This document shows positions 2,151-58,957 of a stretch of 64,000 bases of DNA, one piece after another; within the stretch, counting starts at the first letter, position 1, and every line of letters begins with the position of its first letter. This stretch comes from Longimicrobiales bacterium. GTDB lineage: Bacteria > Gemmatimonadota > Gemmatimonadetes > Longimicrobiales > Gaopeijiaceae. The stretch is from NCBI GenBank assembly GCA_965218295.1, contig CBDCKN010000003.1, forward strand, positions 416,001 to 480,000, in the 5' to 3' direction. The notes beneath the pieces are model-generated. The model saw nothing but the letters and a program-made list of their open reading frames with translations. It did not search any database and was not told the DNA's origin. A program made the translations under genes and the position numbers.

Positions 2151-2822
2151 CTAACCCAGACTGTGAATGCCGCATTCCGTTCGGACCCGTCCCCTCCACC
2201 TGCCAGCCCGCTCGTGCTCGCCTGAGGACACGGGCGTCGTCAGAGGCTCGTCGCCGACGCTGGCATAGCCGAGATCATGCAGGGGGTTGTACGGCACATC
2301 GTTGGATCGAATGAACGACCAGACTTCGTCACCGGTCCAAGACGCCAACGGATTGATCTTCACTCGATGGTTGATCTCTACATGTTGGAGACCGGCACGG
2401 CTGGACGACTGGTCCCGTCGCCGTCCCGTGATCCAACCCTGGACGCCACGGAGGGCCCGCTTCATGGGTCTGACCCTGGTGAGCTCATGAAAGTGATCGA
2501 GATCCCGCTCCCAGAGACGCTCCCCGTGGGCCCGCTCGAAGTCTTCTCGAGACTCGGCTGCCCGGTAGAATCGCACGTCGAGGCCGTAGTGGGCCTTCAC
2601 CCGCTCGGCATGCTCGAGAGTCTCGGGGAAGTGATGAAGGGTGTCGATGAACACGACCGGGACTTCTGGCGCGATCTCGGCCAGGAGGTGGATAGTCACC
2701 ATTCCCGTGGGCCCGAAGGACGTGCATAGGACGAGGTGATCCCTTGCCACGTTCTCCACCGCCCACCGGATGATCTCCGAGGGATGCCAACGCTCCAACT
2801 GCGAGACCAGTGTCTCCGCCAT
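2151..2822 (-). CDS. cysH: Phosphoadenosine phosphosulfate (PAPS/APS) reductase
   Basis: TSFG, FIDTLHHFPET, WITGRRRDQ, KINPLASW, YNPLHDLGY, ERAGRW, C-terminal ECGIH; AAGGAG RBS before the ATG at 2822. Confidence 0.92.
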   Translation of the reverse strand: MAETLVSQLERWHPSEIIRWAVENVARDHLVLCTSFGPTGMVTIHLLAEIAPEVPVVFIDTLHHFPETLEHAERVKAHYGLDVRFYRAAESREDFERAHGERLWERDLDHFHELTRVRPMKRALRGVQGWITGRRRDQSSSRAGLQHVEINHRVKINPLASWTGDEVWSFIRSNDVPYNPLHDLGYASVGDEPLTTPVSSGEHERAGRWRGRVRTECGIHSLG

Positions 2823-2860
2823 CGTTCTCCTTGTGCTCCCCCGGGGTCGCCCCCGAGATG

Positions 2861-2900
2861 AAATAGAAAAAAGGACCGCCGGTGTGCTCCGGCGGCCCTT
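2861..2900 (-). terminator. Intrinsic terminator T2 in the cysH leader
   Basis: Minus strand AAGGGCCGCCGG-AGCACA-CCGGCGGTCCTT followed by TTTTCTATTT (12-bp stem, one G-U). Confidence 0.85.
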
Positions 2901-2917
2901 CCTGGCCCTGGTTCGCC

Positions 2918-2956
2918 AAAAAGAAGACACCACCGGGAGGCTCCGGTGGCGTCTTC
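2918..2956 (-). terminator. Intrinsic terminator T1 in the cysH leader
   Basis: Minus strand GAAGACGCCACCGG-AGCCTC-CCGGTGGTGTCTTC followed by TTTTT (14-bp stem, one G-U). Confidence 0.85.
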
Positions 2957-2980
2957 GGGACGGTCAGCGCATGATATGTA

Positions 2981-3052
2981 TCAGTGCGCCCCCCGATGCC
3001 CCACCGGGCTCGGTTGGCAACAACACCGACAACAACAGCATGTGAGTCGCAT
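2981..3052 (-). CDS. Cys-rich attenuator leader peptide MRLTCCCCRCCCQPSPVGHRGAH (23 aa)
   Basis: 7 Cys codons in 8 consecutive positions; GAAGGA RBS 8 nt before the ATG; lies between a promoter and two terminators upstream of cysH. Confidence 0.88.
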   Translation of the reverse strand: MRLTCCCCRCCCQPSPVGHRGAH

Positions 3053-3085
3053 TGACAGCGTCCTTCGTAGTGGCTTGAACAGGTA

Positions 3086-3113
3086 ACACTAACCAGCGGG
3101 ATCGATCTGTCAA
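3086..3113 (-). promoter_or_regulatory. Sigma70-type promoter for the cys leader/cysH
   Basis: Minus strand TTGACA-N16-TAGTGT. Confidence 0.6.
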
Positions 3114-3140
3114 GACCGGACCGAAGTTGTGATCCGTCAT

Positions 3141-3168
3141 TTGACATGACGCACAGATTCGCTATCGT
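3141..3168 (+). promoter_or_regulatory. Sigma70-type promoter for the pro leader/proCBA
   Basis: TTGACA-N16-TATCGT. Confidence 0.6.
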
Positions 3169-3206
3169 CCCACTTGATCACGTGGACCTTTTCGACTGGA
3201 CAGACC

Positions 3207-3302
3207 GTGAACCAGCACGCACGACCGCTACGCCGACCGCGAAACCAACGTCCGTTTCCTAGGGAGCAGGCGCGTCGTGTCTTGCGTGGGGAGAACCGAT
3301 AG
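3207..3302 (+). CDS. Putative Arg/Pro-rich leader peptide MNQHARPLRRPRNQRPFPREQARRVLRGENR (31 aa)
   Basis: GTG start with GGA 6 nt upstream; 10 Arg and 4 Pro codons; its 3' part can pair with the segment leading into the downstream terminator. Confidence 0.5.
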   Translation: MNQHARPLRRPRNQRPFPREQARRVLRGENR

Positions 3303-3333
3303 AGCCACCTTCGACCCCAGAAACGCGACGTTC

Positions 3334-3368
3334 GCCGGCCTCCGTTCCAGGAGCCGGCTTTCTTGTTT
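3334..3368 (+). terminator. Intrinsic terminator directly upstream of proC (attenuator)
   Basis: GCCGGC(C)TCC-GTTCCA-GGAGCCGGC followed by TTTCTTGTTT. Confidence 0.7.
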
Positions 3369-3382
3369 CCAAGAGGTTTTCG

Positions 3383-4228
3383 ATGTCCGCAGACAAAGCA
3401 ACCGAATCATCGTCCACCACCCTGGCTATTCTCGGCGGCGGCAATCTGGGCCAGGCACTTGTACGCGGCTGGGTACGCAGCGGGACGCTGCGGCCCGATC
3501 AGATCCACGTCACTCGCCGGCGTCCGGACGGGCTGGAGGAGTTGGCCGGGGAGGGTTTCGCGGTCGGGACCGATAATCGCGTTGCCATCCAAGGAGCCGG
3601 TACGATTCTGATTGCGGTTCAGCCTCAACAGATCGCGGATCTGCTCGAGGAGATCCGGGACGATCTCGATCCCGGCCGACACAAGGTCATCTCGGTGGTC
3701 TCCGGCGTGACTATCGCCCAGTTGCGGGAGATGATCCCGGCTCCAATTCCGGTGGTCCGAGCCATGCCGAACACGGCCGTCTCGATCGGAGAGTCCATGA
3801 CGTGCCTCTCGGCCGGCCCCGACTCGATCGGCGGCCTCGACGAGGCGGAGGCCCTCTTCGACGGAGTGGGACTCACGCTCCGGATCGAGGACGAGATGAT
3901 GCTCGGAGCCACGGCTCTGTGCGCGTGCGGGGTAGCGTTCTTTCTTCGATCCGTTCGGGCGGCCTCCCAGGGCGGTATCGAGATCGGCTTCCACCCCGAA
4001 GACGCTCTCCTGCTTGCGGCGCAGACCGCGAGGGGAGCCGCTTCGCTCACCCTCCGCGAGAACCATCATCCCGAGTCGGAAATCGACCGGGTCACGACGC
4101 CACGGGGCTGCACGATCGCAGGGCTCAACGAGATGGAACATCAGGGTTTCAGCTCGGCGATGATCAAAGGCTTCATTCTTTCCGCCCGCAAGGCCGGTGT
4201 CCTCTTCGACGACGGGGACGCCGCGTGA
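3383..4228 (+). CDS. proC: Pyrroline-5-carboxylate reductase
   Basis: ILGGGNLG, AVQPQ, RAMPNT, VTTPRGCTIAGL; operon context. Confidence 0.93.
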   Translation: MSADKATESSSTTLAILGGGNLGQALVRGWVRSGTLRPDQIHVTRRRPDGLEELAGEGFAVGTDNRVAIQGAGTILIAVQPQQIADLLEEIRDDLDPGRHKVISVVSGVTIAQLREMIPAPIPVVRAMPNTAVSIGESMTCLSAGPDSIGGLDEAEALFDGVGLTLRIEDEMMLGATALCACGVAFFLRSVRAASQGGIEIGFHPEDALLLAAQTARGAASLTLRENHHPESEIDRVTTPRGCTIAGLNEMEHQGFSSAMIKGFILSARKAGVLFDDGDAA

Positions 4229-5505
4229 CCGTCACCACGGAAGCCGGCCGGGACTTCGGCGCACTCCGCCGGATCGTGGTTAAAGTCGGGAGCAGCATCA
4301 TCGCGCCCGCGGGGCGGCTCGATTCGCTCGTCATCGAGCGTATCGCCAAGGACGTCACGGCACTGCGTGACGAGGGCCTTGAGGTCGTACTGGTCGTGTC
4401 GGGTGCTGTCGCGGCAGGATACCTCGGAATGGGAAGGAATCAGCCCCCGACAACGGTCGTCGAACGGCAAGCGGCCGCGGCGGTGGGGCAGTATCAACTC
4501 ATGACGATGTTCGCGCGGGAGTTCGAAAGGTGCGACACCGTGGTCGCGCAGCTCCTCATGATGCAGGAGGACGTCGAGGACCGGCGCCGGTTCCTGAGCG
4601 CGCGGCACACGCTGCAGGAGCTCTTGTCGCGGGGTATTCTTCCGATCATCAACGAGAACGACCCGCTCGCAGATGACGAAGCGAAGATCGGAGACAACGA
4701 CCATCTCGCGGCGCTCGTGACGAGTCTGACCACCGCCGATCTCCTCGTGATTCTGAGCACAGTCGCCGGCGTACTTCGGTTCAACGATGACGAGGAAGAG
4801 GCCACGGGCGGCGCCACCTACCATACCCCCGAGGATGCGACCAGAGAACCCGGTTGGGATGGCGCTGGAGAACCTGCTGGGGACGGCGCCGGAGAGCCCA
4901 GCAACGGTGGGGAGGATAACGACCGGGCACTCCCCGCCGAGGTGATCAGCACCATCGAAGTCGGCTCTGAGATCGACCGCCACATCACCGATGACCAGAG
5001 TGAGACCGGTGTAGGAGGGATGAGGGCGAAAGTCCGGGCAGCGAGATTGGCGAGTGACTGGGGGGTCCCAACCGTGATCGCCTCGGGCAAGGAGCCCGGA
5101 CTCCTCACACGCGTCGTGAACGGCGAAGAAGTCGGATCGCTCTTCGTACCGGGGACCAAGCGCCTCACGGAGCGCAAGCGGTGGATCGCCATCCGTACCC
5201 GTTCGCGGGGATCGATCGTCGTGGACGACGGCGCTAAGCGCGCGCTCGTCGAACGTGGGGCCAGCCTCCTGCCCATCGGCATCGTCGACGTCGAGGGCGA
5301 CTTCGGGATCGGTGAGCGTGTCGACTTGGTCGATGGAGACCGGGCGGCCTTTGCCGTGGGTCTCGTTTCGTACCCGGCGTCTGAGATTCAGCGCATGAAG
5401 GGACGGCAAAGTGAAGAGTTCAAGGAAGTGCTGGGGTACAGGTACGTGGAGGAGATCGTACATCGAGAGGATCTGGTTTTACTCGACCTGAAGACCAACG
5501 ACTGA
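4225..5505 (+). CDS. proB: Glutamate 5-kinase with PUA domain
   Basis: VVKVGSS, SGAVAAG, AAAAVGQ, PIINEND, GDNDHLAA, GVGGMRAK, RKRWI; GTG overlaps the proC stop (GTGA). Confidence 0.93.
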   Translation: MTVTTEAGRDFGALRRIVVKVGSSIIAPAGRLDSLVIERIAKDVTALRDEGLEVVLVVSGAVAAGYLGMGRNQPPTTVVERQAAAAVGQYQLMTMFAREFERCDTVVAQLLMMQEDVEDRRRFLSARHTLQELLSRGILPIINENDPLADDEAKIGDNDHLAALVTSLTTADLLVILSTVAGVLRFNDDEEEATGGATYHTPEDATREPGWDGAGEPAGDGAGEPSNGGEDNDRALPAEVISTIEVGSEIDRHITDDQSETGVGGMRAKVRAARLASDWGVPTVIASGKEPGLLTRVVNGEEVGSLFVPGTKRLTERKRWIAIRTRSRGSIVVDDGAKRALVERGASLLPIGIVDVEGDFGIGERVDLVDGDRAAFAVGLVSYPASEIQRMKGRQSEEFKEVLGYRYVEEIVHREDLVLLDLKTND

Positions 5506-5570: not shown

Positions 5571-6815
5571 ATGAGTGAGGTACGGACGGCGGCCGAGGCC
5601 GCACGGGACGCCGCACAGCATGTGGCGACGCTCACGACCGAGCGGAAGAACAACTACCTGCGTGATTTGGCGGGAGCGCTCGTCGCCGCGGAGGAGGACA
5701 TCCTCCGAGCCAACGCCGGGGACATCGCACGCGCTGAAGAGGATGGACTGTCGACGCCTAAGCTCAAGCGACTGGGCATCACAGCAGAAAGTCTCGGGCA
5801 GATGGCGGAGGGACTGAGGCAGGTCGCGGACCTCGACGACCCGGTCGCACAGGTCACGCGGGACCAGACACTCGAGAACGGTCTCCGCGTAACGCGAGTG
5901 CGCTGTCCGCTCGGCGTCGTGATGATGATCTACGAGTCACGCCCCAACGTAACGATCGACGCTTTCTCCCTTTGCTTCAAGTCCGGTAACGCCTGCATCC
6001 TCAAAGGGGGCAAAGAAGCCCAAGCGAGCAACGAAGCGCTCGCCGAAGTGATCCACGCCACGCTTCGCGAGCAGGGGCTGCCCGAGGAAGCACTCGTGCT
6101 GGTGGGGTCCGGCGGACGGGAGGCCGTCGCCGAGCTGCTCACCTTCGACGACTGCATCGATCTGGTCATCCCCCGCGGCGGCGAGACGCTGATCCGCTAT
6201 GTGAGTCAAACTTCCTCCATTCCAACCCTGCAGCATTTCCATGGGATCTGCCACGTGTACGTCGACGCTGACGCGAACCTCCCTAGTGCCTTGGAGATTT
6301 CGGTCACGGGCAAGACCTCTGCGGCGGCCACCTGCAACGCGACCGAGGCGGTCCTGGTGCATAAGGACGTGGCGACGACGTTCTTGCCCGATCTCGTCGC
6401 GGCCTACCAGGAGGCGAGCGTCGAGGTACGAGGCGACGAGGCCGTGCGCGCCATCGCCCCGAATGTGACGGCCGCCGCGCCGGACGACTGGGGCAGGGAG
6501 TTCCTCGATCTGATCGTGGCGGTGAAGGTCGTTCCCGACATGGACGCGGCCATCGATCACATCCGCCGCTTCGGCTCCGATCATACCGACACCATCGTCA
6601 CTGAGAACGCGGAGACTGCCGCGGCGTTCACGCAGCGGGTCCAGTCGTCCTGCACGCTGGTGAACGCTTCGACGCGCTTCAACGACGGGTTTCAGCTTGG
6701 CATGGGCGCCGAGATCGGCATCAGCACGTCCCGTGTCCATGCCTACGGGCCGATGGGCCTGGAGGAGCTGACCTCACAACGGTTCGTGGTCGAGGGGGCT
6801 GGGCACGTACGGTGA
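5571..6815 (+). CDS. proA: Gamma-glutamyl phosphate reductase
   Basis: PLGVVMMIYESRPNVT, LVIPRGG, CNATE, NASTRFNDG, EIGISTSRVHAYGPMGL. Confidence 0.95.
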   Translation: MSEVRTAAEAARDAAQHVATLTTERKNNYLRDLAGALVAAEEDILRANAGDIARAEEDGLSTPKLKRLGITAESLGQMAEGLRQVADLDDPVAQVTRDQTLENGLRVTRVRCPLGVVMMIYESRPNVTIDAFSLCFKSGNACILKGGKEAQASNEALAEVIHATLREQGLPEEALVLVGSGGREAVAELLTFDDCIDLVIPRGGETLIRYVSQTSSIPTLQHFHGICHVYVDADANLPSALEISVTGKTSAAATCNATEAVLVHKDVATTFLPDLVAAYQEASVEVRGDEAVRAIAPNVTAAAPDDWGREFLDLIVAVKVVPDMDAAIDHIRRFGSDHTDTIVTENAETAAAFTQRVQSSCTLVNASTRFNDGFQLGMGAEIGISTSRVHAYGPMGLEELTSQRFVVEGAGHVR

Positions 6816-8432
6816 CAAGGCCGGAGCGAGATCGCAGCAAGGGCCTTTGGTTGCAGTGGGTCTCAGCTACGTTGACTGATCATGAGGACCGGGCACCCTA
6901 TGGCCTGGGCGATCTCCAGCATTTTCTCACCGAAGACCTTCCGCCGTCTGTCGATCCGTTTGAGGCCGAGGATCACCAGATCACTTCCGGCCGCCCTGTC
7001 AACGACTTCTGCCACCACGTCGTCGCTCATGACCACGACTCCTTGGCTCACCCCCGGAGCCTCGTCCTGCGCCAGCTTTCGGAGCTCGTGATCGGCCCGA
7101 CGGACGGTCTCGCGGTTCGCACTCGCGGGCAGGACACGCAGGAACGTCACCTCTCGCTCGTCGCTCTGGGAGAGGCTGCCCAGGAGGCGCGCGCGAATCG
7201 GGCTCTGGAACCTTGCACCCCCCGAGGGGACCAGGATCCTCCTCGCCTCGAAGAGGTCCCAACCAGTGGGGGCCCCCAGAATGACCACATCGGCATCGAC
7301 CCTTCCGATCAGTCGCTCCAGCGGCCCAGCCATGAGCGACTTGCCCAGTTGGCCGACACCGAGGAGCAGACTCTCACAGCGGGTCCGTGCCGCCACCCGA
7401 GCGATCTCTTTCCAGGGGTCGTCACTGATGGTGATCAACGCCTCGGGCCTGAGGTCGGCCGAGAGGGCTTTGGAGAGCGCACCGCCCAGTATGGACTGCG
7501 CGTCCACCAGCTGGCGCGGCAAGCCGTCGGCGGGCCACTCGTCCGGCTGGCCGACCACCGAGAGGAGGAGAACCCGTGACACGGATCGGGGCGCCAGCGC
7601 GTGGGCCATGGTCACCAGGATTTCCGTGCTGGCGGGATTGGCGATCGGCACGAGAGTCAAGGGGTTACGGCCCCGCAAACGCATGAGCTGCGGATCGAGG
7701 GCCTCCGACGAGGCATCCACCACCCGGGCCCCATGTGCGAACTGGGTTAAGTACAGGATGGCACCGAGGCTCAGCCACAGAGCTGCCAGAACGCCCGCAG
7801 AGGGCACCGCCAGAGCCTGGAACATCGCCAGAGAGAGGCACGCCACGCCGCCGACAGCCGGAATCAGCGGAAACGCTGGGGTCTGGAACGGGCCGGCGTC
7901 GCCCGCCCGCGTTCGAACGAGATAGGCGATCCCGTGGGCGATGGCGAAGCTGGTCAGAAAGATGAGTCCCGACATCGCGCCCGCCGCCGCCACGTCGGGG
8001 ACCGCGATCAGCAGGAACCCCACGGTGACCCCGGTCAGCTGGATGGCGCGCACGGGCGTGCCCCGATCGGGAGTCACGTGGTCCAGCCACCGCGGCAGGG
8101 TGCGGTGCGACGCCATGGTCCTGGCAAACCGCGACGCAGCCAGCAGGTTGGCATGCAGCGCGGAGAGCATGGATAAGACACCCGCCACGACGATCAGCCA
8201 ATAACCGGAAGGACCGAGAAAATTGCCTACGGCTACCGCCACCAGGATCTCCGGGTTCTCCCCGGCCAGGGCGGCGATGGACTGGCCCGGCGCGCCGACC
8301 GCGACGATCAGGAACAGCAGCGGGAGGTAGATAACGAGGGCTACACCGAGAGAGAGCAACATGGCTCGAGGAATCGTTTGGTGATTGTAACCCTGTTGCA
8401 CGGGATACTGCGCATCAGTTAGCTTCCGGTGC

Positions 8433-32785: not shown

Positions 32786-34237
32786 GTGAAGGCCGATACT
32801 GGTTTTCTGCTCTGCATATCAGGCCTGGGAGCCGCCCTGGTGGTCGCCGCAGCCGCACCGGCCCCGGTCGAGCCCGCGGTCGAATGGACTCCCCCGGAGG
32901 CCACGGTCCGGTACGATGGAGTCCGGAGGGTCTTCGAGGCCAAGTGCGTGAGCTGCCATACGGGGTCGGACGCCGCCCGGGGCCTTCGCCTGGACTCGTG
33001 GGAGAGCACCATCGCCGGTTCGGACGAGGGTGAGGCCGTCATCGCGTACGACGCCGCTCGCTCGCTACTCATCGAGCTGACGACCAAGCTGGTGGGTGGC
33101 CCCCACCCGGCCGAGCTCGACGCCGAAGGACTCACAGAGGATGAGGTGTCGCTCCTAAGCGCATGGATCGACGAGGGAGCCCCGTCGGAATCCGGAGAGA
33201 TCCCGTACGCCGACGCGAACCAGCTCCTCTATGCGGCCAACCAGAGCGAGGCCATGGTCTCGGTCATCGATATGGAGACCAACCAGGTCGTCCGCATCGT
33301 CGACCTACAGACGCTGGGCCTTCCGGAGAACGCCTCGCCCCATCACATCGCCGTGGAGCCCGACGGATCGTACTGGTATCTGTCCGTCATCGCGGCGAAC
33401 CAGATCCTCAAGTTCGATCGCCAAAACCAGCTCGTGGCAAGAATCGACTTCGTCAGGCCGGGTCTGCTGGCGCTGGATCCCGAGGGTGAGAATCTCTACG
33501 CCGGCCGCTCCATGGCTGCCGTTTCCCCGCCCCAGGAGATCGGAGTGATCCGCCGCTCGGACATGAGCTTCGAGGAGGTTGGCATCTTCATCCCGAGACC
33601 TCACGCCCTGGCCGTCCAGCCCGGTACCGGAACCGTCTATACCGCCAGCTTGGCCGTCAATCAGATCGCGTCCTACTATCCGGAAGACGAGGCGCTGGAG
33701 CTCACTGACCTCGGGGGTGACCGGCCCCACACCCTCATCGGGTTCGCGACGTCGCCCGACGGTCGGTGGATGGTGGGCACGACCCAGCTGACCGCAACGG
33801 TCTTCGTGTTCGATCTCAAGCGGGCACCCGACATGACTCCGGTGGACACCATCGCCGTGAATGCCGCTCCCTGGCACCCGGTGTTCACGCCCGACGGCCG
33901 CTGGGTCTACGTCGGGAACAACTGGGACAACACGGCGAACGTCATCGACATGGAGACGCGGACCCTCGCCAAGGTCATCGAGGGGAACGGTCTGGCCCAG
34001 CCCCATGGGGCCGCGGTCTCGCCGGACGGAAGCTTCGTGTACATCGGCAGCCGGAACCTCGAAATGCCCGAGGGCCACAGCAAGTACGGCCACATGTACA
34101 CGCCACGCTACGACACGGGCGACAACGCGCGGGCGGGGACCGTGGTCGTGATCGACACCGAGACCCAGGAGATCGTGAAGGTCATCGAGATCGAAGGGTA
34201 CGGTGCCGGGCTGGGGACCGCGGCCCGGATGCCCTGA
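32786..34237 (+). CDS. Secreted monoheme cytochrome c (planctomycete-type) fused to a YVTN/YncE beta-propeller
   Basis: Signal peptide, KCVSCH, LSAWIDEGA, repeated PH..A..PDG..Y blades. Confidence 0.8.
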   Translation: MKADTGFLLCISGLGAALVVAAAAPAPVEPAVEWTPPEATVRYDGVRRVFEAKCVSCHTGSDAARGLRLDSWESTIAGSDEGEAVIAYDAARSLLIELTTKLVGGPHPAELDAEGLTEDEVSLLSAWIDEGAPSESGEIPYADANQLLYAANQSEAMVSVIDMETNQVVRIVDLQTLGLPENASPHHIAVEPDGSYWYLSVIAANQILKFDRQNQLVARIDFVRPGLLALDPEGENLYAGRSMAAVSPPQEIGVIRRSDMSFEEVGIFIPRPHALAVQPGTGTVYTASLAVNQIASYYPEDEALELTDLGGDRPHTLIGFATSPDGRWMVGTTQLTATVFVFDLKRAPDMTPVDTIAVNAAPWHPVFTPDGRWVYVGNNWDNTANVIDMETRTLAKVIEGNGLAQPHGAAVSPDGSFVYIGSRNLEMPEGHSKYGHMYTPRYDTGDNARAGTVVVIDTETQEIVKVIEIEGYGAGLGTAARMP

Positions 34238-58879: not shown

Positions 58880-58957
58880 ATGAGAACCTCGACTCAGCAT
58901 CATCGGCACCATCATCACCATCCGCTCACGGGCGGCTGGCTGGAGATGTGCACCTGA
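58880..58957 (+). CDS. hisL: his operon leader peptide MRTSTQHHRHHHHHPLTGGWLEMCT (25 aa)
   Basis: 7 His codons in 8 positions, upstream of a terminator and hisG. Confidence 0.92.
   Translation: MRTSTQHHRHHHHHPLTGGWLEMCT

Follow-up and report, generated by a model that had tools for sequence, protein, structure and literature searches.

A putative leader-peptide attenuator with arginine and proline codons ahead of the proCBA operon of a Longimicrobiales bacterium

Classical attenuation is known for the His, Trp, Thr, Leu, Ile/Val, Phe and Cys operons, and multivalent leaders are known for thr and ilv. In mgtL, Pro codons of an upstream ORF (uORF) are coupled to alternative hairpins. The papers cited below by PMC number are drawn on in part. 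The hisL, trpL, thrL, leuL and ilvGL leaders contain a short uORF with cognate codons and 1:2, 2:3 and 3:4 hairpins, followed in the hisL type by an intrinsic terminator just ahead of the biosynthetic operon (PMC1183508). A putative leader of this kind was analysed in the present window (the whole stretch of DNA, 64,000 nucleotides long). It shares these features, the hairpins as predicted, with the hisL-type leaders, whereas its target is proCBA, its codons are Arg and Pro codons, and its start is a GTG with a weak ribosome-binding site.

The Salmonella mgtP leader is alike in that Pro codons of the uORF are coupled to alternative hairpins, but it contains three consecutive Pro codons (PMC3641672). 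The genes under mgtP and mgtL are those of Mg2+ transport and virulence. The pro leader of the window contains no Pro run, is dominated by Arg and precedes a biosynthetic operon. In the Salmonella speF leader (orf34/SpeFL) a lack of arginine is sensed at successive Arg codons of the uORF, and the leader acts on an ornithine decarboxylase by way of Rho, RNase G and RBS sequestration (PMC6386406); in the pro leader, in contrast, an intrinsic terminator and an antiterminator are predicted on a biosynthetic operon. The T-box of Bacillus proBA/proI likewise places proBA under termination control that responds to tRNA charging (PMC9245794), whereas no Rfam T-box match was found here, the predicted sensor is the translating ribosome, and arginine is likely sensed. 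In E. coli, proline synthesis is without enzyme-level regulation and arginine synthesis uses ArgR (PMC6345581).

Searches of the open-access literature, subscription papers and older surveys being outside this scope, found no leader peptide described as attenuating the biosynthetic genes of proline or arginine, and the portions of PMC8632094, PMC5343134 and PMC4997734 that are drawn on name no Arg/Pro attenuator on proBA. The leader described here is a real, selected regulatory element, as judged from comparison of its homologues. It is probably, though by no means certainly, a ribosome-mediated attenuator that senses arginine through arginyl-tRNA, proline (through prolyl-tRNA) being a likely second signal. 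If so, Arg and Pro would join the attenuated amino acids, in one bivalent leader.

Leader ORF, hairpins and homologues

A sigma-70-type promoter was found on the forward strand (3141-3168), containing TTGACA at 3141-3146 and TATCGT at 3163-3168 with a spacer of 16 nt. The presence of a promoter had been claimed in an earlier note on this DNA, and the promoter scan found this to be the sole promoter-like site within positions 2600-3600, where shuffles expect 0.2. TTGACA was conserved in 31/32 aligned segments spanning the promoter position, and the DNA 5′ of the promoter was unalignable among the homologues. The untranslated 5′ part (3175-3206, forward strand), its transcription start being placed from the -10 box, was found to vary from about 34 to 75 nt among the homologues and to tolerate non-triplet indels, unlike the ORF that follows. 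It contains TTCGACC-like repeats, present between the promoter and the GTG in two to five copies whose number and phase are variable among the homologues. The repeats may be an operator, a protein-binding site or slippage products.

The leader ORF (3207-3302, forward strand) was found to contain 31 codons with a GTG start and a TAG stop, and its translation is VNQHARPLRRPRNQRPFPREQARRVLRGENR followed by the stop, with 10 Arg (4 CGA) and 4 Pro, the same counts as had been given before. The sensing codons predicted from folding and codon counts are codons 6-17 (3222-3257, forward strand), RPLRRPRNQRPF, with 5 Arg and 3 Pro in the window and with 5-7 Arg and 3-4 Pro in the full-length homologues. 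Within codons 6-16 of the window leader 8/11 are Arg or Pro, and an ORF with at least 8 Arg plus Pro among 11 of its codons was found in 41/2000 dinucleotide shuffles of that leader; the 9 of 11 of homologue L025 were matched by 7/2000. With Arg alone as the criterion, the numbers were 204/2000 for the window leader and 39/2000 for L025.

A conserved uORF was found across the proC leaders, as the earlier note had proposed to check: the GTG start was present in 34/34 distinct segments and the stop was retained in 35/35 complete loci, being TAG, but TAA in two. The sole indel inside the ORF was an in-frame deletion of 12 nt in 5/36 loci, which falls in at least three places on the proC tree (5/36 loci without enough proC were left out); the deletion is repeat-mediated, and recombination is possible. 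A weak GGA was the only ribosome-binding site before the GTG, and no upstream ATG or TTG extension was conserved among the aligned homologues. For the GTG frame the pN/pS was 0.93, compared with 0.76 for the alternative frame, and the leader ORF carries no signal of protein-level selection in the sequences compared. Since several changes at 3220-3244 are synonymous in the alternative frame, codon conservation is inseparable from RNA-level constraint; R15, P16, P18 and R19 sit within the 1:2 hairpin.

The distinct replacements of Arg within codons 6-16 were Pro at three positions and Leu, Cys and a synonymous AGA once each, and TGA was not among them. Of the Arg codons at these positions 108/109 were CGA, CGC or CGU, counts that share ancestry and are not independent, and CGG makes up 33% of the Arg codons genome-wide. 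CGA, CGC and CGU are read by the tRNA with the ACG anticodon, which was found in the genome of the window (G000). A 4-kb stretch at G000:C9:276539-280522 contained 18 tRNA genes, two of them for tRNA-Pro and another for the tRNA-Arg with the ACG anticodon.

Another frame (3182-3262, TTATPTA) had been offered earlier as the possible real leader. It exists, but it was found to contain a start codon in just 3/34 segments and to lose its stop in 4/36 loci, the losses being synonymous Pro-codon changes in the GTG frame, and it was rejected as the leader. Stalling dependent on Pro, Arg or EF-P had also been suggested. Arg as the likely main signal and Pro as the likely second one are retained from this suggestion, and EF-P dependence was rejected as the core mechanism: Pro-Pro is absent from the window peptide and was present in only 7/25 haplotypes.

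The predicted anti-antiterminator (1:2) hairpin (3249-3272, forward strand) would sequester GGCG, and it folded at -8.1 kcal/mol in the window and at -11 to -14 kcal/mol in the homologues, among which it was conserved without covariation. Folding, pair counts and shuffles point to an antiterminator (2:3) at 3269-3336 of the forward strand, in which GGCG 3269-3272 is paired with CGCC 3333-3336. This antiterminator folded at -24.9 kcal/mol and occupies the CGCC of the terminator 5′ arm; an equally stable helix pairing the CGCC was found in 18/1000 shuffles. The intrinsic terminator (3334-3368, forward strand) contains a hairpin at 3334-3358, with a stem of -16.7 kcal/mol, followed by the U-rich tract TTTCTTGTTT at 3359-3368, and 14 nt separate its end from the proC ATG at 3383. 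Both the terminator at this distance and an antiterminator invading its 5′ arm had been proposed before, and both were borne out by the folding. The terminator at 3334-3368, the stem of which has a bulge, was missed by the consensus terminator scan, and the stability of the whole leader was ordinary (z 0.28).

When the nascent RNA downstream of a ribosome with a footprint of 6 nt was folded, the antiterminator was predicted in 32-33/33 sequences for A-site positions from codon 9 to codon 17, and with a footprint of 9 nt in 32-33/33 for codons 8-16. It was predicted in 0/33 once the A site was at codon 19 (6 nt) or codon 18 (9 nt) onward. At full-length equilibrium the antiterminator probability was above 0.5 at codons 12-15 in 23-30/32 homologue sequences; in the window it was only 0.21 and the terminator dominates. 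Without a ribosome, the antiterminator was already favoured on the nascent RNA in 25/33 sequences, with a value of 0.07 in the window. The truncated L074 was excluded from all folding and L029 from the full-length equilibrium folding. No pair changed on both sides was found in any helix among the homologues and most pairs never vary, counts that are uninformative as to covariation because the homologues, at about 95% column identity, are too similar. The homologues and the folding together support the uORF with its antiterminator/terminator switch. Rfam, which the earlier note had named for the recognition of a T-box or riboswitch, gave no match with the window leader at E up to 10, T-box included, nor with homologues L025 and L033 at E up to 1. 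Contigs of four RNA runs, which hold small shares and were searched as contigs only, included none over 3099-3383.

Searched at the DNA level, 300 family genomes gave 11 full-length homologues, all in genera g10, g15 and g53, along with three partial homologues; 24 further loci came from a pattern scan of metagenomes. Because that scan picked its loci by codons 19-28, the count of variation in these codons is too low. Promoter, ORF, antiterminator and terminator were found to recur in 35 homologous loci ahead of proC, and all complete leader loci lie before proC. Across 12 genomes 3/89 four-fold sites of proC were invariant, and in the 11 full-length genomes 13/15 four-fold sites of the leader ORF; across the 12 genomes 28/30 bases of codons 19-28 and 4/12 of the loop past the ORF stop were invariant. 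The invariance of the ORF and of codons 19-28 against the variable four-fold sites of proC argues for strong selection on the leader. The best ProC match, L185, was found to contain the same leader; it may duplicate a counted genome and was left uncounted; L036 and L037 were excluded from the leader alignment.

With the covariance model R1, no more distant homologue was found in 26 loci and the genomes of 150 family members; it recovered the copies already known, along with three remnants and a single weak match at E 0.027. BLAST and nhmmer found no second copy in the genome of the window. By eye, the upstream regions of 18/19 other proC loci contained the leader once, those of 30/80 further proC loci contained no such leader, and 23 proB loci of other families contained neither such a leader nor the ARG-box pattern. 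Truncated remnants were found in G001 and G002, genomes without proB, where only the 3′ half of the leader is left, at another place in the genome, with the stop missing in 2/2. The G001 remnant (L036:1500-1590) precedes an Xaa-Pro peptidase-like gene that scored below the family cut-off, and the G002 remnant (L037:1500-1590) was likewise found to contain the 3′ half without the ORF stop. In G108 (L038) the terminator alone was retained ahead of proC, and ArgR was kept.

proCBA, the proposed arginine route and ArgR

The proC gene (pyrroline-5-carboxylate reductase) lies at 3383-4228 of the forward strand with the ribosome-binding site AGAGG at 3372-3376 and scored above the TIGR00112 cut-off. 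It is followed on the same strand by proB (glutamate 5-kinase, 4225-5505, TIGR01027), the start of which overlaps the proC stop, and by proA (glutamate-5-semialdehyde dehydrogenase, 5571-6815, TIGR00407 and PRK00197). All three genes passed their NCBIfam cut-offs, in agreement with the target that had been assigned to the leader before. ProB was found to be interrupted by about 40-50 acidic-type inserted residues (window about 4795-4920); this acidic insertion splits the HMM match and is shorter in relatives. The closest titled ProC relatives were mostly of Gemmatimonadota, Longimicrobiales among them. By sequence likeness, this ProC type was found downstream of an N-acetyltransferase-like gene in other Gemmatimonadota (L004, L005, L007, L196 and L197) and amid arg-like genes at some Bacteroidota loci (L206, L211 and L226). 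Such likeness suggests a recurring link of the ProC type to arginine operons.

In the leader-bearing genomes, which are of MAG quality, argC was found in 0/12, and the best weak match in G000 was asd. Above cut-off, argJ was found in 0/5 and argB in 0/5 of the leader genomes tested (MAG quality, incomplete). The argH gene was found in 5/5 tested, rocD (ornithine aminotransferase) in 12/12, and an ornithine carbamoyltransferase (OTC) gene in 5/5 tested, lying in G000 inside arcA-arcB-arcC. In 301 family genomes, proB together with argC was found in 22, proB only in 59, argC only in 133 and neither in 87, a tendency toward mutual exclusion (odds ratio 0.24) among genomes that are kin and not independent. 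The carB gene was not found in G000, which is 91% complete, and was present in 4/4 relatives.

Arginine is made via P5C and ornithine aminotransferase in S. aureus, by the route PutA-RocD-ArcB1-ArgGH with a catabolic OTC (PMC9239276), and in the mammalian gut (PMC5372011). The leader clade is alike in RocD, in a catabolic-type OTC within arcABC and in argGH. Although ornithine breakdown is the direction favoured by the OAT equilibrium, OAT runs toward ornithine in the mammalian gut (PMC5372011). In S. aureus the route sets out from proline and argJBCD are retained (PMC9239276), whereas in the leader clade argC was not found and glutamate would enter via ProBA. As an ornithine source, proCBA likely serves arginine synthesis also. 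The role of Arg as a product of the proBA pathway is inferred from gene content and from the ArgR boxes described below, and the ProB-ProA/RocD route is proposed because the acetylglutamate route to ornithine was not seen in the leader genomes. If true, this would be regulatory evidence for bacterial arginine synthesis fed from ProBA via ornithine aminotransferase, and genomes with argGH and without argC that are now scored as arginine auxotrophs would be explained.

In the sister genera, proB is the first gene of a proBA operon. Among the 30 best-scoring loci, 21 showed an ATKCA-N7-TGMAT junction ahead of proB, at most 250 nt away, against 0 in proB coding DNA totalling 30 kb. We take this junction to be the geometry of tandem ARG boxes. 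Ten further proB loci contained an exact box (2), a box with one mismatch (3) or none (5). The 4.8 Mb of G275 contain the 21-nt form of the box at two sites only, one at proB and the other between argR and argH, and ArgR is encoded in 23/23 genomes with an exact box. With predicted boxes at the promoter and at arg genes and with ArgR encoded, proBA of the sister genera appears to fit the ArgR regulon. At L133-L157 (genera g12, g88 and others) proBA was found under tandem predicted ARG boxes. The ARG-box genus g12 is mostly without both argC and rocD; rocD was found in only 1/13 of its genomes, so that another ornithine-forming aminotransferase would be needed there. In its article text, the supplements being outside the scope, PMC5343134 does not name proBA among the members of the ArgR regulon, in the portions drawn on, and no description of proBA as such a member was found in the open-access literature.

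The ARG-box pattern gave only two matches in five leader genomes, both within coding DNA, and ArgR was not found in 10/12 leader genomes of MAG quality. G111 contained an intact ArgR, the leader and a truncated proB. In genus g10 both ArgR-keeping genomes are without the leader ORF. The presence of ArgR in some genera and of the leader in others indicates that proBA is likely arginine-regulated across the family. At about 7315-7770 of G000:C10 (L294) argR was found to be frameshifted between its two domains; it is intact in G001, G002 and G016 and deleted between trxA and argG in g10. The frameshift of G000 was found also on contigs of two runs, one of which may be the source of the assembly, and an intact argR was found on other contigs of these runs and in a close strain; the run contigs display all three states of argR (intact, frameshifted and deleted). 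A swap from repressor to attenuator may be caught in progress here, argR being intact, frameshifted or deleted in one clade.

Proposed mechanism and alternative explanations

The computed features of the leader agree with a classical attenuator: a uORF and an enrichment of cognate codons were found, and mutually exclusive hairpins and an antiterminator freed by stalling are predicted. A ribosome stalled at Arg/Pro codons 8-17 would hold the 1:2 hairpin open, GGCG 3269-3272 would then pair with CGCC 3333-3336, and with the terminator blocked proCBA would be transcribed. A ribosome moving beyond codon 18-19 would cover GGCG and the terminator would form. The leader would in this way turn proCBA on when arginine (or proline) is scarce. 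A switch-on at arginine shortage would make sense because the genes would also supply ornithine for arginine: glutamate semialdehyde from ProB-ProA would be converted to ornithine through RocD transamination, followed by conversion of ornithine to arginine through an ArcB-type OTC, ArgG and ArgH. Arginine is likely the main signal, given that argC was not found, that sister-genus proBA has predicted ArgR boxes and that ArgR is mostly missing where the leader is present; proline is likely the second. The leader clade, in which ArgR is mostly lost, would use the attenuator in place of ArgR control. That this is the first bacterial arginine-plus-proline attenuator, with an animal-style arginine route, a direct replacement of ArgR and a companion riboswitch on argGH, is a tentative wider reading, to which we give slightly less than an even chance.

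A sensor of proline only, or an EF-P/Pro-tRNA sensor like mgtL and mgtP in which the Arg codons would be GC-rich filler kept in place by RNA pairing or slow CGA codons that set the pace of the ribosome, is unlikely. The proCBA target would suit it, as would the retention of P7, P16 and P18 wherever present (P18 by three different codons), the repeated Arg-to-Pro changes at codons 8, 10 and 12 and the exclusive use of CCG/CCA for Pro within codons 6-16. However, Arg stands to Pro at about 2:1 in the sensing codons, the window leader is without Pro-Pro, P11 was lost in 3/25 haplotypes, and the ArgR boxes on sister-genus proBA, the loss of argC and the loss of ArgR would be left unexplained. The retention of start and stop in all functional copies, including a TAG-to-TAA change, the restriction of ORF deletions to in-frame ones and the loss of the stop in the remnants speak against an RNA switch with an incidental ORF, whether a riboswitch or a TRAP/HutP-like protein acting on the GAC/CGACC repeats at 3184-3240. 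The region of the predicted switch also coincides with the Arg/Pro codons, and Rfam gave no match. Such an untranslated switch is improbable, although it would account for the conservation at nucleotide level (the 13/15 invariant four-fold sites, pN/pS near 1), for the weak RBS and for the CGACC repeated both 5′ of the ORF and within it, and a structured leader without an ORF precedes argG in the same clade.

The near invariance of codons 15-28 would also be expected of a nascent-peptide arrest sensor of the SpeFL/TnaC kind, in which RPLPRERARPVLRG would stall the ribosome upon free ornithine, arginine or P5C. The same codons, however, double as strands of the 1:2 and 2:3 helices, the L17F, R21Q and P24R changes of the window keep or gain base pairs, and stalling from codon 19 onward would, by the folding, promote termination, as normal translation already does, so that arrest of this kind is very unlikely. 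Least credible is a leader in the Thr-rich alternative frame or a constitutive terminator without regulation, a pair of explanations already largely refuted. The lower pN/pS of that frame and the dominance of the terminator in the full-length equilibrium folds of the window would suit them, whereas the start and the stop of the frame are poorly kept, as given above, and the invariant 2:3 strands (28/30 bases) would be needless in a constitutive terminator. The reading as an attenuator sensing arginine, with proline second, is the one preferred.

Other leaders in the genome and clade

One leader for His, one for Leu and two for Cys were found in the genome of the window; every one of them has a terminator and precedes the gene that matches it, and their presence favours the attenuator reading of the pro leader. 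A Cys-rich uORF, MRLTCCCCRCCCQPSPVGHRGAH, lies before cysH at 3052-2981 of the reverse strand, divergent from the pro leader, followed by two terminator-like hairpins at 2956-2923 and 2903-2868; this cysH leader is likely a cysteine attenuator, and one RNA-run contig spans 2907-3063 of its region. A His leader with seven His codons and a terminator was found at window positions 58880-58957 of the forward strand, ahead of a hisG-like gene. By sequence likeness of the genes that follow, a Leu-containing leader with a terminator lies before a leuA-like gene near 399334 of G000:C3 (forward strand) and a second Cys leader with a terminator before a cysG-like gene near 33422 of G000:C12 (reverse strand).

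A structured leader was also found ahead of argG-argH, containing a three-way junction followed by a U tract (G000:C10:7905-7992, L306; L295-L313). It gave no match in Rfam, and no conserved uORF was found in the 11/18 loci that could be anchored. Two pairs with compensatory changes were found among 15 sequences, and the leader is a candidate arginine-pathway riboswitch. Its matches were present in 19/29 genomes tested, all of genera g1, g10, g15 and g53, and these genera are the clade that has the pro leader.
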